From Ancylonema sp. (lineage: Eukaryota), in the NCBI GenBank assembly GCA_050230475.1, contig JBFLGF010000014.1:124001-145118 (forward strand): DNA of 21,118 nt, read 5' to 3'. Each line of letters begins with the position of its first letter. Position 1 is the stretch's first letter. Positions 1 through 21,118 of this stretch are shown piece by piece. The notes beneath the pieces were generated by a model. That model was given only the letters and a program-made list of their open reading frames with translations. It was not told the origin of the DNA and ran no database searches. The position numbers and the translations under genes were made by a program.

Positions 1-3000
1 GGGAGCTGCAGCAGCTGGTGCAGGGGGGTGTGCCCATGGCGCTTCGTGGCGAGTTGTGGCAAGTGTTTGTGGGCACCAAGGGGAGGAGGGAGGAGGGGAA
101 GTACGATGGCTACTTGGACGAGGGGGGGGGGGAGACGGCATCCAATGGGACAGGCGGCAGTTTTGAGGACATCTATGCGCGAATCCGAGCCAAGGACGAG
201 GCGGAAGTGTTCACGTCTCAAATCGAAAAGGTGAGGGGGAGGAGGGGGGGACAGTGGGGGACAGGGGCATGCGGGCAGTGGGGGGCTCGTCGCTGGGGGC
301 AGCTCACAGAGAATCTGAGGGTCTGGGGTCCAGGATCTCCCGCGCACGTTCCCTGGTCACCCCGCCCTGGACGCCATCGGCCGCGACGCGCTCCGTCGGG
401 TCCTGATCGCGTACGCGCGTCGTACCCCGGAGGTGGGGTACTGCCAGGGGATGAACTTTCTGGCGGGCCTGCTGCTGCTGCTGATGCCGGAGGAGAACGC
501 GTTCTGGACTCTTTGCGGGCTCATGGAGGAGTACATGGAGGGGTACTACTCCGAGTCCATGATCGAGGCGCAGGTGGACCAGCTGTGCTTCGACGACCTC
601 GTCAGAGATAACTTCCCAAGGCTAGGTGGGAATACGCTTCGGCCCCTGCTCCCCTCCAAGGTCCTGTAGGGAGGCCCACCTAACGGAGCGGGGGGCGTTG
701 GGGTGGGTTGGGGGGTGCAGTTGGGCACCTGGACATGCTGGGTGTCCAGGTGACGTGGGTGAGCGGCCCCTGGTTCCTCTCCGTGTTCGTCAACGTCCTC
801 CCCTGGGAGTGCGTGCTGCGCGTATGGGACGTGCTGCTCTACGAGGGCAACCGCAGCCAGCTGTTCCGAACGGGGCTGGCGCTGCTGCAGCTGCACTCCG
901 CTGCACTGCTGGACTCGTATGACCCGGGGGACGCCATGGCGCTGCTGCAGTCCATTGCGGGGGCCACGTTCGACGGGAGCGAGCTCGTGTTTGCGGCCTG
1001 TCTCGGATACCCGGACGTGGACGAACTCATGCTGACCGTAAGGGGGGGGGGGGGCTGGGGGGGGCGGGGGGGATGGGGTTGGGCTGACGGGGTGGAGAGG
1101 TTTGTGTGCAGGAGCTGAGGGACAAACACCGCCCCACAGTGCTCAAGATGTTGCGCGATCGTCAGCAGTCTCTGGCTCGCTACCAGTCCGTGAAGATCAA
1201 CCGGATGACAGCAGAAGCGGTGCAGCAGCAGCAGCAGCAGCAGCAGGCTATGGGGGAGGGGGGGGGGGAGGTGACGCCCTCCCCCACCCCTCCCAAACCC
1301 AACGACGTGGCGGCGGCACTCCAAACCCATCGCTTGTCCCTCATGAAGCACCAGAGCATGAAGGGCGCTGACATCAGCAAGGTGCTGGAGGAGCTGCCAG
1401 CTGCCCCTCTGGTGGCGGATACCCGGGCTGGAGCGGGGTCCACCCTCAGGAGACTGCCCTCGGGGGGACTGGCGCTGAAGAGGTTGGGGATGGGCGGGGG
1501 GGGGGGGCTGGCGAGGGTTCAATCGCTGTCGGCTTCGCCCGAGGGTGCCGAGAAGAAGGCGCGCGTGGGGGAGGCCCTGTCCACCCACCGATCCTCCGTG
1601 GTGCGCCACCGCAGCATGCACTCGCCGCAGCTGGGGAAGGTGGCGGAGGAGAGCATGGAGGGGGTGGGGGGGGAGGGGAACCTGGGGTCGGGGTTGGGGT
1701 TGGGGGTGGGGCGGAAGCAGCCTGTGCTGTCGCGGCTGGTGAGTCTTTTTGGTGCCTCGGCCATTATGGTCATGGACGTTGGGGCGATGATGGAGGAGGA
1801 GGCGAGGGGGGACGGGGGGGAGGAGAAGGGGGAGGCGGAGGGTGGTTCGTCGGACGGTACCGTGCAGGAAGCGGAGGAGGGGGAGGACGGGGAGGAGCAC
1901 CTCCTGGCGCAGATCGAGTGGCTCAAGGAGCAGCTGGTGATGGTGCTGGAGGGTCAGGATGAGGCCCAGATGAGGGTGGAGGAGCTGCAGGCGGCGCTGG
2001 CCGAGGTTGCAGAGCGGCTGGAGGCTGCAGAGGAGGAGGACAAGGTGGCCCTGGTGAGGCGGCTGGAGAGGCTGGAGGGGGAGGTGGCGGCAGCCAAGGA
2101 GGAGGCGGCCCGGGGGGGGTCACGGGAGAGGGAGCAGGAGGCCATTGAGGCCGCCATCGCGCTCAAGGAGAAGGTGCTGGAGGAGGAGGTGGACGAACTG
2201 CTGACGGCGCTGGCGGATAAGGAGGAGAAGCTGAGGAAGGAGGTGGAGGACCTGAGGATCATTCTGAGGGAGAAGGGGAGGGAGGTGGAGCAGCAGTACA
2301 AGGTAGGGGGCGGGGGCTGGGGGGTGGGGGTTGGGGGGTTGGGGGGGCTGGGGGGTGGGGGTTGTAGTCTGTCCTGGGCCAGGTTGTGAGGGTGGCTGTG
2401 GTCGGGGTTCGGGTTCAGGTTATGGACCGCATGCAGATGGAGTTCAAGGCCACGGATGACTTGCGTCTGGCGGCAGAGCACCAATCGAGCACTCAGAAAC
2501 ACTTCATCGACCTGCTCATGGTCAGGGGACTGGGGACTGGGGACTGGGGAGAGGGGGGCACAAAAGGCACACTCAGGGGTTTGCGTTTCGGGTCTGTTGA
2601 CTTCGACTCTCGGGTTTCGGGTTTCGGGTTTCGGATTTCGGGTTTTGGGTTCTTCAGGAGAAGGCGCACGAGGCCGAGGTGAAGAGGAGCGATATGGAGA
2701 AGCGCGCCACGATGGCGGAGAGCATGGTGCAAGCGTTCATGGCGGCGGCGCCGGCAGAGGGGACCTATTCCACATTCAATGCCGCCACACCATCCACGTC
2801 AGGCACACCGCGACACAACTCATTCTCATTTGAGGGAAGGAAACAGGTGGGGAGGGGGGGGGGGAGGGTGGGAGGGGGGGAGGGGAGGAGGTGGGGATGG
2901 AGGGTACAGATGTTGTTTGGGCTGTTTTGTTGACAACGTGCGGCGGATTGTGTGGTTGGCGCAGATGATGGGGTTCAAGGACGAGGGGGTGGGCCGAGCA

Positions 3001-3276
3001 GCGATGGACAGCGGCTTGCCACGTGTACGAACACGTGGCGAGTACGGGGGCAGCCACGGGGGGGGCAACTCGGTTGGGGACTCCCCGCGGTCGCTGAGGA
3101 CGACGTCGTCGGGGGCGGGGTCGCCGGGGAGGGAGCTGTTGTCGCCATTGTCTCCGAATTCTTTGCGCGCCATGGTGGCGCACACGAGGAGCAGGGAGGA
3201 GCAGGAAGGAGGGGCACGGGGGCAGTTCCCATCCTCGCATTCGTCATCGTCTTCGACTCGGAACGAGTACACATGA
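1..3276 (+). CDS. 3' part of a spliced Rab GTPase-activating protein gene (TBC domain plus C-terminal coiled coil, plant Ypt/Rab-GAP type); 5' end lies outside the window. Exons: <1-230, 334-625, 721-1037, 1112-2302, 2419-2520, 2658-2846, 2965-3276
   Basis: Spliced translation gives the TBC signature motifs GVPMALRGELWQ, QIEK|DLPRTFPGHP (IxxDxxR arginine finger), VGYCQGMNF (glutamine finger), EENAFW, WFLSVF and LRVWDVLL. Six GT-AG introns (231-333, 626-720, 1038-1111, 2303-2418, 2521-2657, 2847-2964) keep the frame. The stop is TGA at 3274-3276. The long exon 1112-2302 may hide an extra intron. Confidence 0.9.
1223..1246 (+). repeat. (CAG)8 microsatellite encoding polyQ in the TBC protein
   Basis: Eight perfect CAG units, in frame in exon 4. 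Confidence 0.95.
2611..2651 (+). repeat. Telomere-like 7-bp tandem repeat (CGGGTTT) about 6 times, in intron 5
   Basis: cgggttt cgggttt cgggttt cggattt cgggttt tgggtt, directly before the acceptor CAG at 2655-2657. Confidence 0.8.
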
Positions 3277-3780
3277 GTTGTATAGTAATCGAAATTAGTA
3301 CATGGCGACTTGCCCGTAATTACTTTGGTCCGACCCCCCTCTCGGTGAGGCAATTGGTCCCAACAAACTCATCTCAAGACTGATTTATTTCCATAGACGT
3401 TTGTGCGGATCGTTGTTGACTCGTTTGGGGGTTCTCTTGCGAGAACGAGCAGTAGGATGAGGCTAAAGGGTCATGGTCGTTTGCGGCACTTGAAAGTTAG
3501 AAAGGTACGTCATGTGAGATGTACTAATTTTGGCCACGTGCAAACATCAGTTTTCGAAGTGGCTGGGTTAGGAGTGGACGCTAGCCTTAGTTGTGACGCT
3601 TATGATTTGATTGCATTCCCAATGAGACCAAGGGAATGGGGAGAAATTCTGTAGGAAACGTGACGCATGTAGGCCCTAGTTGGAAAGAAATAGCGACTTT
3701 TGATGTGCTCGTCCATGGTTGTTCGGAATACGCTTCTAATACCACATTAATAACCCAAATGAGTAAGAGACAACTTCCAA

Positions 3781-3820: not shown

Positions 3821-4333
3821 TCACGTCAAATAACTTGTCCTAGAGATGGTGATCGGCGCCCGGTGACATGTGACGGTGATAGAATAGATAATTGATACGG
3901 TTTGGAACTTGGAACCACCGAAAAGAGGTTCAATATCATATGGAGCTCTTGGTCCACATTTATTTATTTCCTTCTCCTGACGCAAATCGAAAATGCATTT
4001 TGATATTTTTCCTCTCCATGGTTGGCTCTAATCCGTCTAGGGATCTTTACCGGTTCTGGACCGATCCTGGTCCTTGACGCCTGTGCCAAAAAAAAAACCC
4101 GAAAACGAAAACAAAGAAAGTAAAGTCTTTTTCCACCGAAAAAGAGAGTATTGTAAGTACTGCATATCTGGTAGAAACTATACTTGTCGCAATTGCTTTG
4201 AATGTCATTCGCGTGGATGTAGAATGTTGTGTTAGAACTTTCTTCTGCCATCGATGCAAGAATAAAGTTCACTTCTTCTTAATCTCTTTGAATCAAGCAG
4301 ATCACGTCATTACAAACGATGACACAACAAAAN

Positions 4334-6681
4334 AGCACAAGCTCTACGCTAAACTGGAGAAGTGCGAGTTCCACGTGGACAACATCGCCTTCCTAGGCTA
4401 CATAATCTCACCATCCGGAGTGGACATGGACCCGGCCAAGGTGGCTTCCCTCCTCGACTGGCCAATTCCCCAGTCAGTCAAGGAGGTGCAGTCGTTACTA
4501 GGCTTTGCCAACTTCTACCGCAAGTTCATCAATGGCTACTCTACTCTCGCCTGCCCCCTAACCTCTCTGGCCCGGAAGGGCGCCAAGTTCCAGTGGACCA
4601 CCGAGGAGCAGGCAGCCTTTCAGTCCCTCAAGATTTCCTTCACCTCGGTCCTTATCCTGCAGCACTTCCATCCGAACTTACCTATCACCATCGAAGCACA
4701 TGCCTTCGACTTTGGGCTAGGTTGCGTCCTCTCCCAGACAAACGCGGCGGGCGAGCTCCACCCCATCGCTTACTACTCGAGGAAATTTTGTGATGCGGAG
4801 CTGAACTACCCAATCTACGACAAGGAGCTGCCAGCAATTGTTGCTGCTTTCCGCCAGTGACGGGTCTACCTGGAAGGTGCGGCGCACCTTATCATGGTCT
4901 ACACGGACCACAAGAACCTGGAGTAGTTTCAGGCTGCGCGAACCACCTCTAGGAGGCATGCACGGTGGGCCGAGACGCGAGCGGCCTACGATTTCTCTAT
5001 CGTTTACAGGAAGGGGTCCAGCAATGGCAAGCCGGACGCCCTCTCCCGCAAATCTGACTACATGCCGCCAGCCCAGCCCCCCCACCCTATCCTCCCCGAT
5101 GCAGCTCTTCTACCTATCCCCCCTCTACGAGCTGCACCTATCCTCCTGTCCCCGTCAGATCCTCTCCTACCTACCATCAAAGAGGCCTAGCTGGCGGACC
5201 CGGCTCTCCAAGCTATTGCGACGGACTTGCTCCAAAGACCTGCTCAGGAATCAAACCTGAGACCACCCTCAGGCAGGTCATCTGCTAACTACACACTCCG
5301 TGAGGGCCTACTCTACCGCAGCGGCCGTTTGGCAATTCCCCCTACCGCTGCTTCCCTCATCCTAGCCATTCTAAAACAGTATCACGATGCGCCCATGGCA
5401 GGCCACTTTGGGACTGCCCGGACGCACGCACTGCTGGCCCAGTATTTTCACTGGCCGGGTCTGTCTAAGGCGGTCGAAGACTACGTGCGCACATGCGACG
5501 TCTGCGCCCGGAACAAGCCGGTGCGCCACGCGCCATATGGCCTACTCTCCCCCCTCCCTATCCCATAGCAGCCTTGGTCTAATGTATCCCTCGACTGGGT
5601 CACGGACCTACCTCCTAGCGACTACCATGATGCTATTTTGGTGGTGGTGGACCGCCTCACCAAGCAAGCCCACTTCATCCCCACCACCAAGGCCATGGCG
5701 GCTCTTGAGGTCGCTGCAGTGTTTCTTGAGCAGGTGGTGCGCCTGCATGGGTTGCCCTCCAGCCTCATCAACGACCGCGATCCCATCTTCACCAGCCACT
5801 TTTGGCGTCGGCTGCTAGAGTTGTTGGGCATCCACGCCAACCGGTCGACTGCTTTCCATCCGCAGACGGATGGCCAGACGGAGTGCCTCAATTCGGTCTT
5901 GGAGTAGTACTTGCGCATTTACACCGACTACCAGCAGTCTGATTGGGCACGACTTCTGCCGATGGCAGAGTTTGCTTATAACAACTCCAAACATTCCGCC
6001 ACCACCCTCTCCCCGTTTTTCGCCAACTACGGGTTCCACCCGAAAATGTCGTTGCTCCCAGCCTCCCCCGATTCCCCCAACTCCGCAGCAGACGATTTCG
6101 CATTCAAACTGCGCTCCGCCAATCCCAGCGCGCCATGGAGACGTCCGCCAATCGGAAGCGTAGATCCGCCCCGAGTCTCATCCCAGGCCAAATGGTTTGG
6201 TTGTTACGCCGCCACGTCGGATCCACTCGTCTTTCGTCAAAATTGGATGTTCGTCGTCTGGGGCCCTTCCCTGTGATTGGCCAGATCGGGACCTCGGCAT
6301 ATCGCTTGGAGCTGCCGTCCTCCATCAAAATATTGGGACCTCGGCATATCGCTTGGAGCTGCCGTCTTCCATCAAAATCCACCCGGTTTCCCACGTCAGC
6401 CTCCTGACGTTCCCCGTAGGGAACGTGTTGGGATTCGTGTCGTGGCGCCTCCTCCTCCAATCATTGTGGACGGCGCACCAGAAAGTGAGGTGGCGGAGGT
6501 CCTCGAGTCCAAAATCTTGCGTGGCAAGCTGTTTTACCTGGTGAAGTGGGTCGGCTACGACGAATCGGAACGTTCTTGGGAGCCTGCGGAAAACATGACA
6601 CACGCTGCTGACGTGGTCGCCGACTATCATGCCGCGTTTCCCGATCGCCCGGCGCCTCCCTCATCGCGTCCCGCGCCTTGA
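4334..6681 (+). pseudogene. pol: Chromovirus pol pseudogene (RT end, RNase H, integrase, chromodomain)
   Basis: KLYAKLEKCEF..FLGYIIS; LGFANFYRKFI; RNase H AYYSRK..NYPIYDKEL and VYTDHKNL; integrase HDAPMAGHFG..CDVC, SLDWVTDLP, NDRDPIF, HPQTDGQTE; GPFPV (GPY/F motif); chromodomain FYLVKWVGYDESERSWEPAEN. Several in-frame stops and frameshifts. Confidence 0.92.
6285..6378 (+). repeat. 47-bp tandem duplication in the integrase C-terminus (frameshifting)
   Basis: 6285-6331 and 6332-6378 differ at only 2 positions, both C>T. Confidence 0.9.
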
Positions 6682-6692
6682 GGGGGGGGTAC

Positions 6693-7125
6693 TCTTAGGA
6701 CCCTCGCTACAGTCACTAGGGCTCCCTAGCGAGGCTCCCACACTTAGCACTAGAGCGCTACTCAGGCAGTTTTCCCTATAGCGAGTGTTGTCCCTTTATA
6801 GTGATATGTGTGCCCCTCGCGCCTTTGTCCTTATATCGAGTGCCGACCCTTAGCTTTCTAGTTTGTTCTTATAACGAGTTCTAGTTATCCCACATCTTGA
6901 TTAGCTTTGTGGGAGTCGACTTTCACTATATCTAAGTCCATAGGAATGCCTTTAGAGCATTTCTATCAACTCATGTATTTGCACCTTGGTGTGCCTACCA
7001 TATCAACAAATCAAGTTTGACCATCGGCTCATTAGCCTCCCTCCTATCGGCCCGTTTCGCCATTTGCCTTGTGTGTGCATTTGCAACTAGTTTTCTAGGA
7101 GTCCTATTCCATTCCACTCCTAACA
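6693..7125 (+). repeat. 3' LTR of chromovirus 1 (about 433 bp)
   Basis: Follows the PPT. Termini TCTTAGGA...TCCTAACA form an 8-bp inverted repeat with one mismatch to TGTTAGGA. Shares motifs with the LTR at 11008-11381. Confidence 0.85.
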
Positions 7126-8709
7126 GGTACTATGTGCGGAGCCAATCTTACGTCGACCCGACCTCAAAAAAGACTTCTTTCTAGCAACAGACTAGAGCTA
7201 GCATGGCTTGGGAGAAGTCATAAGCGAGGTTGATGAAGAAAGGAGACGAGTACGCCGTAGCCTTTGCAAGTAGAAGTTGCAATGCCGTAGAGAAGAATTA
7301 CAGCAGCTTTCATGGGGAATGCCTCGCAGTCATCTCGACAGTTCAACAGTTTCGCCAATACTTGTTTGGACGAAAATTAACACTTATTACCGATCATGCA
7401 CCTCTTAAATGGATAATGACAACGACCAAACTTATCGGAAAATTGGCGCGTTGGGCATTACTACTTCAAGAATACAAATTTGAGGTAATTCATCGACCGT
7501 GTGTCACGCACACTAACGCGGACGGGTGCAGTCGCTGTCCCTTACCCGACACAGGCAACACGTCCCACGAAATTGACACACTCGGGGATCCCACACCCAC
7601 GTTTACAACATTACCAATTACTTGTGTTAGCCCATCTTACTTCATCAGCTTCAATCACAACACGGTTCAATCGGAAGAAGCCACAGTGGATATTTGGGAG
7701 GACAATGACACACTAACCTTACTTCGATCACATCGCTATGGTACTCATCTCACACCGTTTCAACGTGATCGAATTTACAGGCGGGCGCTTAAATATCGAT
7801 TATTGGAAGACAAACTCTACAAAATCCCTATCGAAGGACACCTCAAATTGGTGCACAAACCAAACGCTCGGGTACCATAGATTTCTACACTGCATACTCG
7901 GTACGGGAATTTTGGAATCAAACGGATCCTCACGGCATTACAAAAGAACTATTGGTGGTTCAATATGGGAGATCAAAGTGGCCGCGATAATTCGCGCTTG
8001 TGTACCATGCTCCCGTTCCAAAACCAACTCCAATGACGGAAGAACGCAACTTCAACCCCTTCCCATTCGAGGGTTATTTTACAAAATGGGTCGAGTTAAT
8101 TCCACTCCCCGATAGGAGCTCCGCCACAACAGCCAATGCGTACCTTGATAATGTGCTAGCACGTTTTGGTGCTTCAGCGGAGACTCTTACAGACCAAGGA
8201 CCAGAATTCATGGGCGAATTCCAAACCCTACAGGCTCAACACAACATTACACACCGCATGGCGTCCCGAGAACACCCTCAATCGGATGACTTGGCCGAAA
8301 GGATGGTTCAAACCATGAAATCAGGTTTGCGAAAAACATTGTTAACGCAACATCGTGATGATTGGGATCTATTCCTTCCATACGTGGCGATGGGATATCG
8401 CATGACTTTACAATCATGATTGGGTTACTCTCCTTACTACTTGTTGTACGAACGACAACCAATCTTCCAAGCACAAATTCAACACCAAGAACACGGTCCG
8501 CTCCCAGCTTCGGACAACGAAATCTAAAAATCCATCGTCAACCGGGGCAAATTGTTCCAAGAAGTTATGCCACTCGCAATGCGCAATCTGGCCATAGCCC
8601 AACAGCGCGATCGACACCAATACTTCAGAGTCCACGGCCAAGGATGGGATCGTCCAATGGCAACATTTCATGTCGGACAATTCGTATGGGTCAAACGACA
8701 AACAAAAGG
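7126..8709 (+). pseudogene. pol: Ty3/gypsy pol fragment (RT-RNase H connection, RNase H, integrase), same family as the minus-strand methyltransferase element; cut at both ends by other elements
   Basis: EPILRRPD, AFASRSCN, ITDHAPLKWIMTTTKL, NADGCSR, LQPLPIRGLF, LTDQGPEF, HPQSDDLAERMVQ, WVKRQTKG, all closely matching motifs at 11382-13050 on the minus strand. A deletion near 8080 removes the first integrase Asp (WGVDFAGP in the other copy). Confidence 0.9.
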
Positions 8710-10277
8710 TGACGTGTTGTTTGAAGTCGGCCGCCCGGAATGGTGCTCTTCATACCTTTACTTCTTTCTTAACTGAAGTTATCTATTTTGATGTCCTCAT
8801 TACTTCTTCTTTACTAAGTTCTGAATGTTGATCATCTCATATAGTCACAATCTTGTATCGATACATGTTGGTAATCTCTCATAAAGTCACAATGTGGTAT
8901 TGTGCTGCTCTCACTAAGTAATATTGCAGATTGAGTCTCTGCTAAGATATCAATATTATATATATCACACGTCTCAGCGGTCTGGTGTGGTGAAATTCAC
9001 TACTTAACGCCGAGGGCGAGCTAATAGATTAGTACAAAAGTTTGTGAAAATACTATAAAGCAACCAAGATAGTCTGGTGCAGACTATCAAGGTTAACAGC
9101 CGTAAGAGTTACTTTCGGTGCGAAAGGAAAGTATCGACGGCGCGTCGATAAAAGATGCTGGCTCAGAAAGAGCGTCAGCAGACAGGTGTAAACAACAAAT
9201 GCTGGCTCGGAGCGAGCGACAACAAACACACACACACAAATGAAATTGCCGGTTCGGAGCGAACGCGGGAAAATCGACAGATATTTAACACACACACACG
9301 CTTGCAGGCTCAGAGAGAGCGTCAGCGAATCGATGTAAGGAATTACAGTCGATTAACAAGCTCGCTCAGAAAGAGCGTCAGCAACAGATTCACATGAATT
9401 AGATCAAATACAAACATACACACACAGATTGCAAAGAATGATTTGCAATCTTACCGGCTGGCTGACGGATGTTAGGCTGAGTCGGAAGACGAGCACGTTG
9501 CGAAGTCGCGTAAGCGAAGGGATGCAATATTCACAAAATTGCAAAGGATTCAGATAACATAGAAGATTGTTGGGAGAGATTTCTTAACAGCGCAATCTAA
9601 CAGCGGAAGCTGGCAGATCTGAAACTACAATTTTTTCTTTTATCACAAAGTTGTTGCGCGGTGCTAACCGGCAGAGTTAACTAGAGTTAAACTGTCGAAG
9701 ATAGCGACAGGCTGGCTTCTATAACATTACAATTAATCACGGCGCGAGATATTTCTCTAGTTCTACGGCTGGATTTAATCGCCGGGATTATCGACAAGTC
9801 GAAAGGGACTTGTGATTTTATCAAAATCGACACGCACCTATTTGTTGAAGACTGCTGGATTCAAGACTTCGGAAAATACGCCACGCGTTATTTTCGAGTC
9901 GTACAAATTTCGTACTTCACTATTTTTATTGTAAGGTACTAGTTCTCACAAAAGTACTAAATCTAGAAAGTCGTTATATTGAATACTCTCGTTATAGCGG
10001 AGTATTAATCTAGAGGAGTTTCTGAACAATCTAGAGGGGTTTCGCCTTAGCGATCTCTAGCGTCATGACAGCTGACGGTGTTGTTTGAAGTCGGCCGCCC
10101 GGAATGGTGTTCTTCATACTTTGACTTCTCTCTGAACTAAAGTTCTCTCTTTTGATGTCCTCATTACTTCTTCTTCTCTAAGTTCTAAAAGTTGATCATC
10201 TCATATAGTCACAATCTTGTATCGATACATGTTGGTAATCTCTCATAAAGTCACAATGTGGTATTGTGCTGCTCTCA
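8710..10277 (-). repeat. Composite 3' LTR region of the DNMT-gypsy element (about 1.57 kb), with a roughly 205-bp direct repeat at both ends (8710-8913 and 10073-10277)
   Basis: Minus strand starts TGAGAGC directly after the PPT and ends ACGTCA. The two 205-bp units are highly similar. 8710-9823 is homologous to 13472-14527 in inverted orientation. No coding capacity. Exact LTR boundary is ambiguous. Confidence 0.7.
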
Positions 10278-10290
10278 CTCCCCCCCCCCC
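10278..10290 (-). promoter_or_regulatory. Polypurine tract (plus-strand primer) of the minus-strand gypsy
   Basis: Minus strand reads GGGGGGGGGGGAG immediately followed by TGAGAGC. Confidence 0.75.
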
Positions 10291-10321
10291 GTTACGAAAT
10301 GGTAGTGTAGAAAACTGGGTA

Positions 10322-10384
10322 TCAGGAGCAGCGTTCGCCTTGGTGGTCAGGACAGAACCATGCACATTCATGTATGACCTGAAC
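10322..10384 (-). pseudogene. C-terminal remnant of pol resembling the end of a PHD finger
   Basis: Minus-strand VQVIHECAWFCPDHQGERCS* resembles the PHD ending (V/I)PEGxWFCPxC/H and stops about 30 bp before the PPT. Confidence 0.55.
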
Positions 10385-11381
10385 CCCTCGCTACCGTGCC
10401 TACGGTGTTTTGTGTCGGAACCCGGTCCCTAGGTCCCGTCTTCGGCTCGTCTGTGGCGACGTGACCTCATCTACAACCGTCAATGCCCTAGCTTGAATCC
10501 TGGCCATCTCGGGAACATTCTCGAAACTGGCGACTCGGTGATTCCCATTTCGAAGCTCGACTGGTTTTTCCGGAAAATTTATACATCGCCGCCGTCCATT
10601 GCGGTTCATCCGACGGGACATCCGCGCTCTACAGATTTTATATCTGCCACCGGGGCATTCGCGATCCCTCCACCATCCAATTTCGTCGACGTGGCGCCAT
10701 CGTATTCTCGCCCTCTTTCTGACACATTCCGATCGGACGGCCGCTGCCGCTGCTCCGCGATCTTCCAGTTTCCGATCGTCCACGTCAAGCCGTCCATCTT
10801 TCGGTCCTTGCTCCCAGTTTCCGATTTCACGGGAGCCCGTTTTTTTCCCTACGACCCTGGGCTCATTATTTTCTCCGCCTTTGAGCCCCGCCATCAGTTC
10901 TCCCTGGCCAAGAGCCCGACCTATTTCGGCTCATTTTTCCAGCCCGGAGACCAGGAGTTTGCCCTTCTCCTTTACGCGGCACGCCGCGCCTTTGACGAGG
11001 GGATACTGTTAGGACTCCCTCTATTGTCACTAGGGTTCCCCTAGAGTGTGCCCTACCCTTAGCTAGCTCTTAGCTTGTAATCCCGATTGCCTAGTTGTTA
11101 AGCCCTAATTTGGTTATTACACTTCATCAACAGTTAGTCCATTGTTAGGCCCTAACTTACATTTGTCCTTATATCGAATTAGGTTCAGTTTTCCCTTATA
11201 ACGAGTTCAGTTCCGACCCTAGTTTCATATTTATACCCATCAGGAATGCTCATTCAGCATCCTGATCAATTCATGTACTCTTTCATATCATACTTGCACT
11301 TTCAACCCTTCCAGTGTGTATTTGTGTTTGTGACTGAGTGCTTTCCTATAAGCTAGAGCCGCCGCTACTGCGACTCTAACA
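10385..11381 (+). mobile_element. 3' end of a second chromovirus-related LTR element: unrecognised internal segment, PPT and LTR (11008-11381), inserted in the DNMT-gypsy integrase tail
   Basis: PPT GAGGGGGA then TAC, then LTR TGTTAG...CTAACA (374 bp). Shares GTCACTAGGG, TTTGTCCTTATATCGA, CTTATAACGAGTTC and AGGAATGC with the LTR at 6693-7125. Left boundary is approximate. Confidence 0.75.
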
Positions 11382-13471
11382 AAGTGTGCCTTTGGTTTGA
11401 CGTTTCACATAAACATATTGATGTTTTAGGAGACGAGGACGCGGTCGTGCCCATGTACCACTGTGTACCCGAAAGTATTGATGCCTGTCTCGTTGTTGTG
11501 CAATGGCAAGGTTGCGCATTGCGAGTGGCATGACTTCCTCAAAAAAAAAAATGCGTTCCAGAATGAATTTTGGTAATTATTTGAGTGCCTCAGGTAAGGG
11601 GTCATGTTCAGCTGCCTGTATTTGTGCCTGGAAGATAGGGTGTTTGCCATACATCAAATAGTATGGTGAATACCCGGTAGAGGCCTGTTTTGTCATGCGG
11701 TACCCCATGGCGACAGAAGGTAGGTAAATGTCCCAATCCGTGCAATGTTCTTTTACGAGGATTTTCCTTAAAGATAGTTACATCGTTTGAACCATGCGTT
11801 TTGCTAACCCATCATATTGTGGGTGTTCCCGGGCTGCAGTACGATGTGTAACTCGATGTCCGGCAAGTAAGTCGGTGAATGCCCCTTCAAATTCCGCGCC
11901 TTGGTCAGTGATGATTTCTCCAAGAGCTCCAAAACGAGAAAGGACATGAGTGAGTAAAGCATGTGCTGCTGATTTTGAAGATTTGTCGGGTAAGGCGATA
12001 AGTTCAACCCATTTGGTGAAATTTTCAATGCATATCATAACGTATTGGTTTTTACGTGTACATTTTGGCATAGGTCCAGCGAAGTCCACTCCCCAACGGT
12101 AGAAGAGTCCCCGAATTGGTAATGGTTGTAGTTGGGTGCGTCCATCAACAAAGTTTGTTTTTGCTCGAGAACATGTGCTGGACATTCTTTGATGACTTGA
12201 ATGACATGATCACCCATCCCATGCCACCCGTAATCTTGTTGTAAAGCGTGGAGCACGCGTTTTACCCCAAAATGACCGTATCGTGTGTGCATGTATTAAT
12301 CAGAGGGATTCATTCTGGTGGTGGTGGAACGATTTTCATGTGCCCAGAGGTAGGGATTTTGTAAACATATCTCCCCATCCATCTATATTTGAGAGCCCGT
12401 CGGTATGTACGCTCTTTGTTGTGGTGTCAAGTCTGGTAGGTGTATGAGTTTTGAGAAGTGTCATTGTGGCATTATTCCCAAATCCACTTTGACATCTTCT
12501 GGTGGTGGTGTACCTTGGTGGAAACCCAGAAAGTACGATGGTGGATTTTGACCCGTGGGTGAGGTTTACATGTAGTAGCAAGGTGTTTTCTCCCCTAATG
12601 TTTCAATCTCACGGTTATCAGTTACTGTCTCTGGTAATGGACAACGACTGCACCCGTCGGCATTGGAGCTTGCAACACCGGGGCGATGGATTACTTCAAA
12701 TTCATATTCGTGGAGTAGGAGAGCCCAGCGCGCAAGTTTGCCGGTGAGTTTGGTTGTTGTCATGATCCATTTAAGGGGTGCATGATCGGTAATGAGGGTA
12801 AATGGTTTACCAAACAGAAATTCACGAAAATGTTGCACCGCCCAAATGACAGCAAGACACTCCCTGTGGAAGTTGCTCTAGTTCCGTTCCGCATTGTTAC
12901 AGTTGCGACTAGCAAATGCGACTGCATATTCGGTACCATCATCATCTGTTTGACTCAAAACGGCACCTAAACCATGTGCACTCAGTAGGTGGCTAGTAAG
13001 TGTGGTTTATTGGTATCTGGTCTGCGGAGCACAGGCTCTGAACAGAATGCTTGTTTGAGTGTGATAAAGGTTGTTTCTTGAGTCTCATCCCAATCCCATT
13101 TGACATCCCCTTTTAGAAGTCCGTTGAGTGGGGAAGCACTGTTGGATAAATGTGGAACGAACTTGCGGTAATAGGAAACCACCTTAGAATAGCACGAAGT
13201 TGATGAATATCCTTAGGTGTTGGCATATCCTTAATAGCTCTGGTTTTCTCATCTTGTGGTGCAATACCTTTCCCATAGATCTTATGGCCGAGAAAGTCTA
13301 TTTCATCCGCAAAGAATAATGACATTTCACTTTGACGAAGGCGATGAAAGACTTCGAAGGTGTTGTACGAAAGTATTGTCATTGATGACATTTCATACTT
13401 GAACTGACTTTCGAAGTACGATGTGAAGACTTGTCGAAGGTGTCGAAGTCTAGAATGGTCCTCGAAAGTAT
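11382..13471 (-). pseudogene. pol: DNMT-gypsy pol, distal part: RT C-terminus, RNase H, integrase
   Basis: EIDFLGHKI, SYYRKFVP, EPVLRRPD, ITDHAPLKWIM, zinc-binding HTRYGHFG..C, core WGVDFAGP / ITDQGAEF / GLAKRMVQ (third acidic residue E>K). Ends YVKRQTKGTL at the chromovirus LTR. Confidence 0.9.
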
Positions 13472-14527
13472 TGTTAAAATCACAAGTCCCTTTCGACTTG
13501 TCAATAATGGCGATTAAATCACTATAAGAATATCTCGCGCCGTTTTCATCGCGAGATTAATTGTAATGTTCGAAGCCAGCCTGTCGCTATCTTCGACAAT
13601 TCAACTCTAGTTAATTCGGTTAGCACCGCGACTTTGTGACAAAAGACAAATTATATTTTCAGATCTGCCAACTTCCGCTGTCAGATTGCGCTGAAGAATC
13701 CCTTCCAACAGTCTTTTGTGTTATTTGTGCAATTCTGTGAATATTGATCCCTTCGCTTACGCGATACGTGCTCGTCTTCCGACTCAACTGACATCCGTCA
13801 GCCAGCCGGTAATTCAAATATTCTTTGCAATCTGTGTGTTGTATTTTACTGATTCATCTGAATCTGACGCCTTTCTGAGCTAGCTTCTTAATCGACTGTA
13901 ATTTATTACATCGATTCGCTGACGCTCTCGCAGCCAGCAAGCGTGAGTGTGTGTGTGTGAAGTATCTGCCGATTTGTCTGCGTTCGCTCCGAACCGGCAA
14001 TTTCATTTGTGTGTGTGTGTTTGCTGTCGCTCGCTCCGAGCCAGCATTTGTTGTTAACACTTGTTTGCTGACGCTCTTTCTGAGCCATCATCTTTTATCG
14101 ACGCGCCGTCGATACTTTGCTTTCGAACCGAAAGTAACTCTTACGGTTGTTAACCTTGATAGTCTGCACCAGACTATCTTGTTTGCTATAGTATTTTCAC
14201 AAACTTTTGTACTATAAACCATATGTTAGCTTGCCCTTAGCGTTAAGTAGTGAATTTCACCAGACCGCTGAGACGTGTGATAGATATAATATTGATATCT
14301 CGTAGAGACTCAATTTGCAATACTACTTAGTGAGAGCAGCCGGACCACCAAGTCCACCTGAGACCCTTCGATCACCTACAAACATCATCGATACCAACCC
14401 AGTCGACATCATCGCTACTCTCTACCACGAGCATTACCACATGCATCATTCTGAGAAACATCCGGGAACAAAGAGGACAAAGTATGAAAAATATCAGTTT
14501 AGGCGGCCGACTCCAAACAGCACGTCA
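13472..14527 (+). mobile_element. Solo-LTR-like copy of the 8710-9823 sequence, inserted just after the YIDD motif of RT
   Basis: Inverted homolog of 8710-9823 with TG...CA ends. Flanked by GTAT at 13468-13471 and 14528-14531 (GTATT if the TSD is 5 bp). Removing it restores SNT|FEDH after YIDDI. Confidence 0.85.
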
Positions 14528-15150
14528 GTATTGCTTCAGTTGCTGATGTCATCAATGTAGCATCGCGAGTTGCGGAATCCTGCCAAAATTCGGTCCAGTG
14601 TGCGTTGAAAGAATGGTGGTGCATTCTTTAGTCCATATGGTACGACATTCCATTCATAAAGTTGACGTTCAGCTCCCCAAAATGCATTCTTGCATTTGTC
14701 TCTTTCAGAGATAGATATCCGGTGGTATCCCTCTCGTAAATCCAATTCGGTAAATATTTTTGCTTCTTTCATGTCCTAAAAGATGTCCTCTATTCGTGAA
14801 ATCTTACTTGTCTTGTTGGGTGTGGTTGAGGATAGGACGATAATCACCACACTGGCGAAAGTCGGTTGGTTGTCCATTCTCGTCCTTCTTTCGTACCACG
14901 ACGGTTGCCGAGGCGTAATTATTACTGTCACTTTTGCGAATCATGCCGAGTTCTAGGAGTTTTTGACAGTTTTCCCGAACAAAGCTCCATTCGGTGTCCG
15001 AAAGACGATGGGAGTTTTGAAAGATTGGTTGAGTTGTTTGCAAAGGAATTTCCATAAGAGTATTGCTGGATGGAAGTAACTCTTCCAGAGAAAAGTTTTC
15101 CTCCAGAAGGTCAATAACGTGAAGTTTTCGTTCCTCCGTAAGATTGTTGC
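14528..15150 (-). pseudogene. pol: Reverse transcriptase, N-terminal and core part
   Basis: LLELGMIRKS..YASATVVVRKKD..RQCGDYR; IFTELDLREGYHRI; YEWNVVPYGLKNAPPFFQR; CYIDDI. Confidence 0.93.
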
Positions 15151-15479
15151 CAATTTCCCATGTAATGGGTTTTACCTCAGTTTTTGGTGGTGAATCTGGG
15201 TTGGATGGAATCATGTTGTCATCGGTGACAATTTCCGATTGGTAATCTGTTTCACTCAATAGTGCTTGAGTGATAGGAATTGCATCTTGAGCGAGATGGC
15301 GTTGCTCAGTTGAAGTGTGATGCAGGTGATTCCTATTATTGTAAAATTCATTGGTCTCGGAGTCGTAATGCAGTGTGTGGTATAATGGAGCAATAGAGTA
15401 GTTGCCCCCCCCCCTTTCTTTGGTTGGCAAGGTGGGGTGTGTACCCTATGCGAGGTTGTAAGATAGAAGTGCATGAGAA

Positions 15480-16455
15480 TGCCTCCCAACCATTTAGCCA
15501 TGTTGCGATCCATCGTGCGTCCCAGCAGTGCTTTCCGAGTATTCTTTGAAATGCCTGGTGCACATGTATCTCCATTGTCAAAACCCATGAGTCTCTCATG
15601 TTCCCAGACATTCGCTTCCTCCCAGTCATGTTTCTCCGTGTTGTAAAGCATTCCAGGGCCTGGTTGATTGTACCCTTGAAATTTAAATTGGTAACTGCCT
15701 CGGTATGAAACAAGTGTCGGTAATGCACGACGTAGTGCGCCAGTTTTGTTAACTGGAGTGAACGGTGGTTCATCATCTTTAAGCACCTTGTTAGGTCGAT
15801 GATGTGGTTCAAGAATGGTTGACAAAGGTGGCAATTCCGGTGTGTCACGAATAGCCAGTTCCAATACATGTGGTGATATCTAGTTTGTCCAGATGCATCG
15901 AACATGGTGGGCTGTGCTACCGAAACTCCATGCGTCGGCAATTGCTAGAAAGCCCAAAAAGGACTTGATGATTGTAGTTGTATCTCGAATTTTCTTCACC
16001 ACATCTCCAAATGGATATGTATTTTCTAAAGCAAATACTGGTGGCTATTTTTGGACTCTGATGAGATGGTTGATGGCTCGAATGAGGTCAAAGAAGTATG
16101 GAAATCGTCGATCATAGTCGCCTTTGCCTTGTCCGGCTTTGCTGACCATCTGACATTCCCACCCAGCGAAGATGAAATCAATAGGTCCTCGTTGTAGGAT
16201 CAGTTCATTTAGATCGTCGTTTGATATTTTTGAAAAATCATGAGAAAGTCGAGTGTCGAAACCTTTGATTGCACTGGTTGGCAATTGTCTTGGGTATCGA
16301 ACTTGAAGTTTGGGTAATGTGGCACGAGTAATGTCACGTGCGTCTTGGTCAATGTCAGTGTGTGTATATGTATCAATGTTGTTTCCAGCTTCAAGGTGCA
16401 TGATAGCGCCAGTCCAACTCATGCCACCTAATGGTTTCCAAATGTGTAAACCATC
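15480..16455 (-). pseudogene. DNMT3-like C5 cytosine DNA methyltransferase domain inside the gypsy polyprotein
   Basis: One frame read through two stops (16045-16047, 15880-15882). Motif I-like LHIWKPLGGM; motif II TYTHTDID; motif IV GPIDFIFAGWECQMVSKAG (Cys at 16153-16155); YFFDLIRAI; motif VI FALENT; motif VIII DAWSFGSTAHHVRCIWTN; motif IX WEHERLMGF; motif X TRKALLGRTM. These parallel DNMT3 GPFDLVIGGSPC / LFENV / AHRARYFWGN / EMERVFGF / RQRLLGRSW. Confidence 0.88.
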
Positions 16456-17049
16456 TTGCATCGCCTTGGGTTGTAAGCGTGCTGTATAAGATGGATCAAT
16501 TGGTACAGCATCACGAATCGGTATACCTTTCTATGCGTTCCATTGTGGTAATGGCTGGTTTGGTATTTTGTCAATGGCCTTGCGTAAATATTGTGCGCTG
16601 TTGATACGCAAGGTTGTAAGTCTGTTGACTGCATGGTGCTCGTTTACTTGTGCCATTGTTCTGGCTGCCGCATTGAGTTGTGGTCGATGCGCTTGACGAA
16701 TGTCTGTATGTTTGGTTGTAGCAAGGTAAACCATGGTATTGGTTTCCCATTCTTGCATCTGAGGTTGGTACTCATTGTCGATGGGTCCATCTGGAAAATG
16801 TTGTGGTTCGTGGTATACACCTTCTTCCATGATACGAAACTCAAATTCTGTCAGAATGTCGGCTTCTTCTGTTGAATGTAACAAATCCTCTTTGGAATTT
16901 GCATAAATGTATCAGCAGACGTGTAAGTAACACCTGCATCCATGTATTGACAATGTACCGATGCCGCGTGTGGCAAGGTGAATTTGACTGTAATTGAGGC
17001 ACGGTGTGTACCCTGTTTTTTCCAGTCGACGCGGAAATGAAAGTGTTGA

Positions 17050-17370
17050 CTCCATGGATCTGTAATGCCTCCTACTATTGGTCCCAGGAAAGTACTGCCC
17101 AACAAAACGTCGTATTTTTCGGACGGTGTCAAATGAAGTTTAACGTTAACCGAAGTTTTGTTTCTACCATGTCCAATGTTGATGGTGTATGCTTTCTTGG
17201 TGGTCCCCAAAGATTGTTGGTATTTGCCTTCTGAAGTTAAGTATTCTTCTCCAGGATCAAGGTCTTGTGGTGTAAGCTTGAGTTGTTTGGCAAATTTGGT
17301 ACCAATGGTCACGTTCTCAGCACTTGAATCGAAAATTGGTAGTGAAGGTGTTTCTCCACCAATAGTGAGT
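17050..17370 (-). pseudogene. Retroviral-type aspartic protease
   Basis: PIFDSSAENVTIG (D-S-G-A-like, Asp at 17328-17330) and C-terminal YDVLLG. Confidence 0.8.
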
Positions 17371-17975
17371 ATGGATTGACAGTTGTCAGCGGTTGGTATA
17401 TGCCAATTGGTTATCAATTTGGCGTTGCAAGGGATCACCGGTGGTTTGGTGTATTGTGGTCCCATTACATAGAGTGCCATTGGTGGTTGTGGCATCTCTG
17501 CTTGTCGAGGGTAGTGGTGGTATGTCACCCTGAGGTGAGTCAAGTAACGTCGTTGTGAACAGTTGGTCATTGTATGTCCTGTTTGTCCACAAAAAACAAC
17601 ATCGTAATTCTTTTTCAATGACATCGTATGGTTCTTCAAATTCATGTCTGTTTGGGGCCTGATGTGGTGCAAACTCGAGTGGTATCGAGGTACATGAAGG
17701 TGAAAGGTCTGGGTGGTTATCAATGGAATATCCCAGGTTATGTTCGATCTTTGTGACTGTTGTAGTCGTTCGAAGCTTTATCATGAGTTTTTCCAGCACT
17801 CGTTCAAGTTGTTCATCAAAAATGTGTACATATCCTGCAAAAATGTCCGACGGAGGTGCCATAACTGTGTAAGTTGGTGGATCAACTTCTCCAGTCTTAG
17901 GCGGCGCGTATCGTGTGAAAGCCAATGTAGCTTTCCATACCTCCTCCGCTTGAAGCAACTGAATGGTGAGATGAC
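17371..17975 (-). pseudogene. gag: gag C-terminal region with a CCHC zinc knuckle (17559-17601)
   Basis: Removing one T from the T-run gives CCFCGQTGHTMTNC (CX2CX4HX4C) and joins the upstream ORF in frame with the protease. Confidence 0.7.
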
Positions 17976-18038
17976 TGTTAGGATTTAAAGTATCGGATAG
18001 GCATACCTTGTTTGGCCTAATCCGGACTTAGCCTAAAA
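17976..18038 (+). repeat. Start of a copia LTR (same family as 19214-19703), inserted in the gypsy gag and cut by the N
   Basis: TGTTAGGATTTAAAGTATCGGATAGG...GCCTAAAA matches 19214 onward with one mismatch. Confidence 0.9.
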
Positions 18039-18689
18039 NATTGCTAAAATCGATATAACGACAAAAGTTCACAACCCCTAAAAACTAACATGTTGATGCA
18101 AGTTTATGCAAATCAAAGTACCCCAAGCGCTTCAATTTCCAAGATTTGAGAGTAAAAACATTGAAGAATCATCAAACGCGGGTGATTTTATGCAATCTTA
18201 CCTACGTAATTCAGGGTTGCACAATGCACTATTCTATCAATAATCTAGGGTCACAATAAGTGGTGGGGCCCACCCGCCAGACATCTTCGGGTGGGTTGAA
18301 AGCTGTCCCGCCCTCCGCCTTCGACCTGCCAGGAGTCCTGGGGGTCCTGGCCTTGGACCCCCACCCTTCCTCCACCCGCCTTTAATCCGCCCCTCCCAGG
18401 GTCCACCCGCAGACCCGCCAAAAAGTGGCGGGTGTCATGTAAAATTGACGGTTTTACCCAACCATGACAATGACCATGTGGTCCAGGACCCAATTATATC
18501 TTTATTTACTTGGATGGTTTATTTTGAGACACGATCGCACCGTGGTCCACTAACCAAGCAAAAGGCATCTCGACAAATAGAAGAAATATTAAAGGTTGGA
18601 ATTCGGTATTGTAGGCATAAAGTCGTGAAAATATTGAATGGGGTAGATTTACGTGTATGATGTACTAGGGTATTACTTCATTTTGGTTA

Positions 18690-18758
18690 ATCACCAAACA
18701 CACTCTTCGGCTAAATCACCAAACATACTCGTCTTCACAAATTCATACTCGTCTTCAC
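18690..18758. repeat. Short degenerate tandem repeat (AATCACCAAACA / CATACTCGTCTTCAC units)
   Basis: Read directly from the sequence. Confidence 0.65.
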
Positions 18759-19703
18759 ATTTTTTTTAATTTTTTTTGTTGTATGCTCAAGTCGTAAAAA
18801 AACCCGTCTAAGTATCCTCGCCGGTTGCGAATATTCAAAGTTTATATAGGTACCAAAATCGGTATAATATTTATAAGGACCGGACTATATATGGTGTTTA
18901 TCATATTTTGAAATTGAGGTCGGCTAGTGACCACCGGGTGCGCGTCTTGTCGGCACGTGCCACTTGCATGAAGATGTGACAATCGTTGTCTTTTTTTTTC
19001 TCATGTAGGAAATTTTGACTTATACATTCGTCCACCTTACGCCTAGTTTTGTGGGTGATATTCCATATTCCATATTGCATATTGCATTATGGTAAAATTC
19101 ACTAACAATCTACTTCCGGCCCCAATATAGCCGATACCGCATACCCGTGTACTCCTTCAAAAAAAAAATCGAATATCGAATACGTTCCCCATCTCTAGAG
19201 AACGTGTAGGTTGTGTTAGGATTTGAAGTATCGGATAGGCATACCTTGTTTGGCCTAATCCGGACTTAGCCTAAAATGCAGTTTAGCATATTAGGTACCA
19301 AGTCCTGTTGTCTAGTTAAGGAACCGGGAATACCACACCCGGGCATCCAACCGTCTTGGCACACCCGGCGGTGTGCCATAATTGTTGTCGTTACAATCTA
19401 GGTGTAGTTTGTCAGAATGTACCTAGGGCGGTGGCACGCTAGTATTGGCTAGAATCTAGTGTGTCAGTTCAGTCCGGCGATAGTGCCGATGTACTTGTGT
19501 GTAGCGGTCTTATGATTGGGCGGCGGTCAATAGTTCCGACCGCCGACCGTTAGACTTGAGATTCGCAATGTACGATCGTCGGGGTATATCAACCCGACGA
19601 TCACACTTTTATGACTATTCCAAGAGACAAAATTGCCATACGGATCCATCGTGCGATACGTATCATTGTTGCGGATAGTACCATCTCATCACAAAATTTT
19701 ACA

Positions 19704-19716
19704 GGTTATGGGCCCA
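19704..19716 (+). promoter_or_regulatory. Primer-binding site of the copia/Ty5/Osser (hemivirus) type, complementary to the internal anticodon region of initiator tRNA-Met
   Basis: GGTTATGGGCCCA directly after the LTR-terminal ACA. Confidence 0.85.
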
Positions 19717-19944
19717 CAGGCTGTCTACGAAGAGACTCTGTGCGGGTCGACATCTAAAGGTTCAACGTGACTGCTGCGCTACAAACGGTAAATTGTGCCG
19801 CTTGTTAAGGGCTAATTATTGGGTTCGGAAATTGTTGCTGTGTGGGCAAGTAATTTTGAATTACGTTGCCGGGAAATTTACCTGTGGAAACTGTGAGCTC
19901 TGTTTTGCTGCGAGTTGTTTTTGTTGTGAGCTAACACCGCAGGC

Positions 19945-21050
19945 ATGTCAGACAAGAGCAACATCCCCTAGTTTACTGGAGCTTCTTACAGAAGTTGGGC
20001 ATTCAAATGCCAGTATGGGTTGGTGGAGAAGAAGCTGCACCGCATCGTCATGGAGTTCGACGGGCTGGCGAGAGAACCTCGGCCAACGCCTGCCGAACCG
20101 CTGACACAGGCAGCACTCGACGCCCTACCTAATAGAGCTGCTAGGGTGATTGCTGTCGCAAATCGTCAGACCATGATTGATGCTAGGGCACCAAAAATTG
20201 CTAATTGGGTTGAACGTGACCTTGAGGCTCGAGCGTATATTGTAAAATACCTCGGCCCATCCGAACAAACACATGTCAGGAAATGTAGATATGCGCATGA
20301 GATGTGGGATACTTTGGAGAGTCATTATGTAAGGCAGGGAGAGATTGAAATCGCCAATGCTACTGCAAAGCTTTCAGCAATTGTCATGTCGGAAGCTTAG
20401 ACGTTGGATGTCTATGTTAAGCGACTGCAGGACATCTTTGAAGATCTTGATAGCATGGGTCGAGAGATGACTACATCCGAGCAAGCGACGGCCTTCCTCA
20501 ACTCCCTCAACACCTACTACTCTGCCAACGTCAGCTCCTTCAACTCTGGTCAAGGACTGCGCCTGCGCTCTACAACATCAACGACATCGTGTCTTCGATG
20601 ATTCAGAACGACGTCCGAGCTGACATCAGACGGAAGAGAGGAGAGCCAGCTGGGGCTGACGCACGAATCAACTACACTACGGATTCGGTGCAAGGCCCGG
20701 TGGTAGGCACGATGGGGGTGGTGGTAGTGGCGTACGAGACCTTCGCGGAATCCAGTGCCACGGCTGCCAGCAGTACGGGCATCTGCGAGAGAGCTGTCTT
20801 GCGGGAATCCAGCAGCAAGGGCCGAAGAAGTGCCACAATTGCGGACGTGCCGGACACCTAAAGTACGAGTGTCGAGACCCACCAAGACAACAAGGTGGAG
20901 GTCAGCAGTATGGCGGCCAGCAGCACTATGGCGGCCAGCAGAACGGTGGCGCGCAGCCTTATGGCGCGAGGAAGGAAGCATAATGGGGATGCCAAGTGCA
21001 ATTGGTGCAAGAAGGACGGACACACCGAGGATATAAGCTTTTGAGTGATT
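19945..21050 (+). pseudogene. gag: Copia gag pseudogene with up to three CCHC knuckles
   Basis: MSDKSNIP*FTGASYRSWAFK; AHEMWDTLESHY; YVKRLQDIFEDL..FLNSL. Knuckles CHGCQQYGHLRESC (20756-20797), CHNCGRAGHLKYEC (20831-20872) and degenerate CNWCKKDGHTEDIS (20997-21038). Stops at 19969 and 20398, plus frameshifts. Confidence 0.85.
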
Positions 21051-21118
21051 AGACGTGCCGGAATAATTAGGTGGGCGACAAAACGAACCGTACGCAAAAG
21101 GATCTCTATCACTGATGA

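Follow-up and report, generated by a model that had tools for sequence, protein, structure and literature searches.

Features of the locus

The window (the whole stretch of Ancylonema sp. DNA analysed in this work, 21,118 nucleotides) bears on its minus strand a copy of a Ty3/gypsy retrotransposon, as judged by the order protease (PR), reverse transcriptase (RT), RNase H (RH), integrase (IN) and by the DDE type of the integrase. This copy is a dead, decayed fragment. Its parts, along with the sequences lodged in it, are listed below in the direction of the element.

16531-18027, minus strand: Gag remnant, zinc knuckle, aspartyl protease and linker (ORF1)
15475-16530, minus strand: DNMT3-like C5 methyltransferase (DNMT) domain, likely the end of ORF1
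12566-15445, minus strand: RT and RNase H of ORF2, broken, split by an inverted solo A-B repeat
13377-14527, plus strand: the inverted solo A-B repeat inside the RT, with GTAT flanks on both sides, 84% like 8904-9824
11382-12295, minus strand: integrase, interrupted by stops: H2C2, core and the C-terminal part as far as KRQTKGTL
10377-11381, plus strand: insert from a different repeated LTR family, comprising its 3′ internal part, its purine tract and a TG...CA LTR (11007-11381)
10322-10375, minus strand: last 17 codons and stop of the pol ORF2, the C-terminal end of a PHD finger (W-x-C-x-x-H, His being the last ligand), decayed
10278-10290, minus strand: polypurine tract G11-AG, linked to the tail by contigs, with a putative role in priming
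10073-10277, minus strand: repeat B1, 205 bp, TG...CA, called an LTR in the earlier note
8914-10070, minus strand: repeat A2
8710-8913, minus strand: repeat B2, 204 bp, which forms the 3′ end and directly adjoins a second same-clade copy

The zinc knuckle and the protease are matched at 16851-17777 of the minus strand, and the 5′ end of the DNMT-bearing element is cut by another LTR at 17976 and by an N at 18039.

The neighbourhood comprises a host Rab-GAP TBC gene with short, very G-rich introns (1-3300, plus strand; PF00566), an element of the chromovirus type that has a chromodomain (E 1e-11), a purine tract and an LTR (4078-7125, plus strand), the second same-clade copy spanning RH and IN (7130-8709, plus strand; 67% to the first copy at the integrase end), and a Copia-type element (17976-21118; gag PF14223 and a zinc knuckle) in which a 63-bp repeat occurs at 17976 and again at 19214. 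The second copy is cut by B2 at KRQTKG, within a few bases of the point at which the insert cuts the first one; this shared cut point near KRQTKG may be due to chance or to a preferred site.

The peptide before the polypurine tract is the end of a PHD finger

The minus-strand translation of 10384-10278 gives VQVIHECAWFCPDHQGERCS, followed by a stop. The earlier note took this peptide for the tail of a PHD finger that terminates pol some 30 bp before a polypurine tract and a TG-starting LTR. The spacing was described correctly: the stop codon occupies 10324-10322, the G11-AG tract (10290-10278) lies 31 bases further on, and the TG follows at 10277. The stop of ORF2 is placed 6 codons past the last PHD ligand.

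As the tail is so short, its identity had to be weighed against a chance reading of the 3′ UTR or of the insert, with the tract and the repeat belonging to another family. Taken by itself, the tail has no Pfam match at E<=1, its pairwise tblastn comparison with 146 relatives gives at best E ~1, which is not significant, and two of its positions are decayed, all of which would agree with a chance reading. On the other hand, in a scoring matrix made of 51 distinct PHD ends, taken from the 53 of 147 search-derived proteins that fit the whole-PHD pattern, the frame starting at 10375 reached 18.6 bits and ranked first among the 26,612 six-frame 13-mers of the window (runner-up 7.3). None of 60 codon-block shuffles was as good as the tail, the best one scoring 14.0. 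The chance reading is refuted by copies of the same family that bear the whole PHD at the same position, and single contigs tie the tail to the B1 repeat, so that we assign almost no probability to it.

The copies in question came from searches with the integrase. The search with the integrase core yielded 28 longer proteins, and that with the integrase end 209 proteins, 120 of them among the matches listed. PF00628 is present in 21 of the 28 integrase relatives, the remaining 7 being all <=417 aa in length. P0140 and its cluster mate P0297, identical to the integrase end of the window at 41 of 50 positions (82%), run on from it into PF00628 with E values of 3e-9 and 3e-10, respectively; both matches are above the cut-off and show a C4-H-C3 PHD with a Trp before the last ligand pair. 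The family copies thus carry PF00628 where the earlier note proposed to look for it, between KRQTKGTL and the polypurine tract, and the PHD tail indeed terminates pol after the integrase. In five of five relatives, GTL and the tail are 95 residues apart, and the hydrophobic-x-x-C-D stretch and the terminal W are tightly conserved across 53 relatives. A metagenome scan with the alignment of the integrase end left 1 distant locus out of 325 pattern matches.

Of 34 near relatives, 33 have a His as the eighth and last ligand, and all 19 others have a Cys; consequently, the ending WFCPDH, odd as it may seem, is the signature of the clade. In the integrase-core tree, built from 59 integrase cores and two rows of the window, the window integrase belongs to a clade of 20 rows (100/99), in which every one of the 17 complete PHDs has a terminal His and two rows are incomplete. 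Of the peptide quoted in the earlier note, only the C and the H of WFCPDH are zinc-ligand positions: within IHEC, the H aligns with a Pro (49 of 53 relatives) and the first C with a Gly (34 of 53), and VQV belongs to the insert. The copy in the window keeps only the last pair of zinc-ligand positions. The peptide is, then, what survives of the C-terminus of a PHD finger that the integrase carried in this Ty3/gypsy element, which is decayed here and has many copies.

The rest of the PHD was lost beside an insert

Contigs of four public sequencing runs were aligned to the window; X1 and X2 stem from one sample, which may be the source of the window itself, and X3 from another study. The region 10262-10396 was matched by 305, 137, 25 and 1 contigs in the four runs. 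The cover ends at 10375/10376 and is zero on 10377-10396, so VQV is insert sequence and the break lies at 10376/10377. This also disposes of the peptide as an antisense reading of the primer-binding region of the insert. Behind 10375, loose contig ends (17 in X1, 6 in X2, 1 in X3) show, when read by eye, the Cys-Leu-x-Pro-x-Leu stretch found ahead of the end of a PHD.

Joints leading from 10376 to 11382 and from 10299 to 11389 were found in one contig each in X1 and X2, both from one sample, and their short sides measure 22 and 27 letters. In a 423-base X2 contig, 10376 is preceded by 307 letters, of which 22 come from the 11382 side; this leaves ~285 bases between the tail and the integrase that are present in the contigs of other copies and missing from the window copy. 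Since the joints and these ~285 bases agree with the 95 residues found in the relatives, the first six ligands must have been deleted together with the left part of the insert; the copy in the window is without a whole PHD, ~95 codons being gone. The proposal that the rest of the domain was deleted or replaced at the insert holds as far as the deletion is concerned, but the insert is 10377-11381, not 10385-11381. It has no matching target duplication on its left.

Other observations concern the insert itself. Its 3′ internal region (10377-11006, plus strand) is repeated in other contigs and contains an open frame of 203 codons that matches nothing in Pfam or Atlas; an adenine methyltransferase gene was considered here and found no support in Pfam, Atlas or a local profile. 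The start of its LTR is 76% like the LTR start of the chromovirus-type element at 4078-7125 over 80 bases.

The element ends in a B1-A2-B2 array

B1 (10277-10073) and B2 (8913-8710) are alike at 192 of 204 positions. At 10070, 75 contigs carry on with unlike letters (agreement 0.34), which likely marks the outer 5′ terminus of the element in other copies, while at 10277 no diverse flanks were seen among the matches listed. B1 belongs to the same family as the PHD tail because many single contigs span 10262-10376. Thus, the tract and the TG-starting repeat do pertain to this element, as claimed previously, but B1 is an inner repeat and not a plain 3′ LTR.

The solo repeat lodged in the RT ends in a third, diverged version of B and begins with TGTCAT at 13377, just as A does. 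The recurrence of B, the divergence of the contigs at 10070 and the common TGTCAT start of the solo copy show together that the end of the element is B1-A2-B2. The left end of the solo repeat is ambiguous, at 13377 or at 13472, the latter likewise preceded by GTAT, because a short RT-like stretch occurs twice around it (13340-13475). Its 4-bp flanking duplication is below the 5 bp usual in plants. We infer a further repeat, A1, given that the 5′ end of the element lies outside the window. Treating 8710-10279 as an unrelated small element with 200-bp LTRs was rejected: there is no target duplication, and the contigs join B1 to the PHD tail.

The methyltransferase and its place in the element

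The DNMT domain of the window matches PF00145 at 22.2 bits against a cut-off of 22 and lies in one frame with three in-frame stops (in the areas of 16043 and 15880 and at the N-terminal border). A profile of the C-terminal half of this domain and 14 homologues proved nearest to DNMT3A (E 4e-24) and DNMT3B, followed by HaeIII (6e-11) and DRM (3.5e-9). The element does, therefore, encode a DNMT of its own, in accordance with the earlier note, and this DNMT is DNMT3-like. A separate copy, P0147, is 87% identical to the window over the linker and the start of the DNMT. A word-indexed search with the N-terminal half of the domain among long proteins found none in 151 candidates; a full HMMER search with the DNMT found 325.

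Two arrangements of the DNMT were observed. In distant relatives, one ORF holds RT-RH-DNMT-IN-PHD. A DNMT before the integrase and a PHD after it occur in 25 of 59 integrase-bearing proteins, a set that includes cluster mates and hits of the DNMT search, and the same order within one ORF in 9 of the 28 proteins of the integrase-only search; L001 is a locus on DNA with this order of DNMT, IN and PHD, with stops. The window has instead the order PR-DNMT-RT, with DNMT and RT in different frames. Among the relatives, P0331 and P0338 (37% to the window) consist of protease and DNMT and end 16 residues past the aligned DNMT, and P0041 aligns with the ORF2/RT frame of the window from the G run near 15415 onward. 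No DNMT was found in the 19 clade mates of the window integrase, 11 of which possess RT and PHD.

Because P0331 and P0338 stop after the DNMT, the clade mates are without one and P0041 starts at the G run, the near-clade layout was probably ORF1 with Gag-PR-DNMT and ORF2 with RT-RH-IN-PHD, joined at most by a frameshift, and the border between the ORFs at the G run near 15415 would be native. P0269 of Closterium, in which a single frame leads through DNMT and RT, speaks against this layout, as does the placement of the Klebsormidium DNMT in Pol (PMC5890265). Since no link on DNA could be made between relatives of the ORF1 type and those of the ORF2 type, the near-clade elements may also simply lack a DNMT. 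No intact single family copy with both DNMT and PHD was recovered from the protein collections or from the contigs of the runs; the link between the two domains in the family consists of one collinear broken copy plus separate fragments. The PHD sits on the integrase in every architecture seen, and the DNMT is in two places or undetected. The long pols P0024, P0026 and P0027 have a PHD after the integrase and no detected DNMT.

At the end of ORF2 in the window, neither a chromodomain nor a DAM was matched by Pfam. Some relatives extend beyond the PHD. In 8 of 22 relatives with long post-PHD tails (P0007, P0010, P0011, P0012, P0024, P0027, P0218 and P0248), both DP-x-x-G-x-G-like and SPW/APW-like motifs are present, which we take to suggest an adenine methyltransferase; no family search confirmed one in these tails. 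Several of these motif-tailed relatives also hold a DNMT and form a PHD version of the EpiLTR layout described below. In L001:6448-8295, a further small domain without a Pfam match is located past the PHD before the end of the ORF. Apart from these, P0195, P0183, P0185 and P0198 are LINE-like or RT proteins that combine a PCIF1-like domain with a C5 DNMT, P0195 accommodating endonuclease, RT, PHD, PCIF1-like domain, DNMT and RNase H in one ORF of 3489 aa.

What the PHD would read and whether it is coupled to the DNMT

The PHD of P0140 has 58 matches in the PDB, led by CHD4, PHD1 of KDM5A/B, ATXR5, WSTF/BAZ, DPF3 and UHRF1/2; ING, BPTF, TAF3 and the ADD of DNMT3 are not among them. The residue two before the His, the position of the cage Trp, is Gly in 55 of 61 sequences and Trp in none of the 61, and stretches of the M/I-x-x-C-D type, with a hydrophobic residue before Cys3, dominate. 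According to the criteria for readers of unmodified H3K4, which include an acidic residue before the first Cys (PMC3241642), the PHD appears to fit the class of unmodified-H3 readers; strict reading of K4me0 is uncertain. Its sensitivity to K4 may be weak, because the acidic residue before Cys1, an Asp in P0140, is absent from P0297 and from most of the 10 aligned relatives.

The same features can be read in another way, namely that the PHD is a generic accessory of the clade that binds H3 whatever the state of K4, or binds another partner, and confers only a general affinity for chromatin, with no real choice of target. The poor conservation of the acidic residue is in line with this, as is the replacement of the last ligand by His in nearly all near relatives (33/34). 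UHRF1 and BAZ2, which are among the kinds of top matches, are R2-focused readers and were counted in its favour too. The literature on PHDs in transposons is likewise speculative in the parts available (PMC9940879, PMC6673714, PMC8557442). What speaks against a generic role is that the hydrophobic-x-x-C-D stretch and the terminal W are so tightly conserved, along with the 2.6-fold intergenic excess reported for the PHD-bearing Gypsy of Chlamydomonas in the accessible text of PMC9940879, where selection is a possible cause as well. On balance, we consider a generic role unlikely.

The earlier note went further and compared the element with animal DNMT3, whose catalytic domain is coupled to a PHD-like ADD. 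In such a coupled reader-writer, the PHD would act like an ADD and bring the DNMT to chromatin unmethylated at H3K4, so that the insertion and its flanks would be methylated at the target; this could take place in a polyprotein that stays uncleaved or within the pre-integration complex. The predicted ligand class of the PHD is indeed that of the ADD, the DNMT profile is closest to DNMT3A (4e-24), and in distant relatives the DNMT directly precedes integrase-PHD in one ORF (25/59, 9/28 and, on DNA, L001). However, the finger is a canonical PHD with no ADD among the 58 PDB matches of P0140, and RT, RH and integrase separate it from the DNMT in the window. The PHD follows the integrase in both DNMT layouts and equally in the three long pols in which no DNMT was detected, and in the near clade the two domains would end different ORFs, >1000 codons apart. 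In the processing of retroelements, the protease of the element is expected to cut DNMT and PHD from each other. Thus, the analogy with ADD as a coupled reader-writer was not borne out, and coupling seems to us improbable for this family.

Discussion

In this work, we provided evidence that a short peptide before a polypurine tract in Ancylonema is all that remains of a PHD finger with which the integrase ended in a DNMT-bearing Ty3/gypsy element. Judging by the relatives, the host is likely a streptophyte green alga. The reading that we prefer, with a probability of roughly 0.6, is that of a decayed Ty3 element in which an integrase-borne PHD tethered integration to unmodified H3 and the DNMT acted separately, on the element's own cDNA. 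The PHD would stay on the processed integrase, in the place where chromoviruses carry their chromodomain, and would tether the integration complex to nucleosomes with free, unmodified H3 N-termini, thereby biasing insertion away from promoters marked by H3K4me3. Being encoded at the end of ORF1, the DNMT would be made in Gag-like amounts and packed into the particle, the site of cDNA synthesis; this would favour its action there, where it could methylate the cDNA of the element and so mark the new copy.

A broader, speculative view is that a green-lineage Ty3 clade rebuilt the logic of ADD-DNMT3 from two captured components, a PHD on the integrase that would read unmethylated H3K4 and a packaged DNMT3 accompanying the integration complex, so that copies land already methylated in H3K4me3-poor chromatin. 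In its course, the DNMT would have changed its place within the element (in the window it ends ORF1; in distant relatives, of which some carry a tail resembling an adenine methyltransferase, it follows RNase H and precedes the integrase), and the PHD would have remained on the integrase. Taken as a whole, this view strikes us as unlikely.

The copy in the window matters only as a pointer to its family. The lineage with both domains is multicopy in one alga, and distant relatives have it as intact single ORFs; such a family allows one to test whether a PHD steers integration as chromodomains do, and whether the DNMT of a retrotransposon methylates its own cDNA.

Ty3 elements with a DNMT and Ty3 elements with a PHD are already in print separately, and the role of neither domain has been shown for them. 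Among the texts covered, no passage describes PHD and DNMT together in a single Gypsy element. REM1 of Chlamydomonas reinhardtii, a Ty3/gypsy element, is said to have a PHD in an antisense ORF. PHDs in algal Gypsy elements and other transposons are described in the available parts of PMC9940879, PMC6673714, PMC8557442 and bioRxiv 2021.11.30.470311, and the accessible part of PMC12344493 has nothing on PHD.

Compared by description only, the family is of much the same kind as KnitGypsy-Dnmt3 from Klebsormidium nitens (PMC5890265), in which a Dnmt3-like DNMT likewise joins the domains of a Gypsy element; the named hits of the searches include no Klebsormidium sequence. A figure legend of that paper mentions DIRS-like repeats, and its peer-review file describes A1 and A2 around the ORFs and two B repeats around A2; this matches B1-A2-B2 of the window, outside which A1 would lie. 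The difference is that the DNMT of KnitGypsy-Dnmt3 is placed in Pol (same source), whereas that of the window likely ends ORF1. The word PHD has 0 occurrences in the main text and three supplements of PMC5890265, and Fig. 4c may show one. When assayed in yeast, the Klebsormidium DNMT was inactive, which its authors call inconclusive, and methylation of cDNA by the DNMT of the element was proposed there, not shown.

Gypsy-7a_cRei of Chlamydomonas reinhardtii (PMC9940879, accessible text) is likewise a Ty3/gypsy element with a PHD in Gag-Pol, for which a role in limiting harmful insertion was proposed; unlike the element of the window, it has no DNMT among the domains listed there. The EpiLTRs of Cymbomonas and Euglena (bioRxiv 10.64898/2026.05.21.726589) similarly join a chromatin reader and a DNA methyltransferase in an LTR element. 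As described in the available part of the preprint, which mentions no PHD finger, their reader is a chromodomain, their DNMT is DNMT4-related and they have a DAM, whereas the element of the window has a PHD and a DNMT3-like domain and no DAM.

Two further known systems are close to the family. Chromoviruses also carry a reader domain at the C-terminus of the integrase, for which a tethering model exists; theirs is a chromodomain that reads methylated K9, in contrast to the PHD of the window family with its predicted preference for the unmodified N-terminus of H3. Animal DNMT3A/B share with the family a DNMT3-like catalytic domain and, by prediction, a preference for H3K4me0, but their ADD lies beside the catalytic domain, whereas the window family has a canonical PHD that is not adjacent to it.
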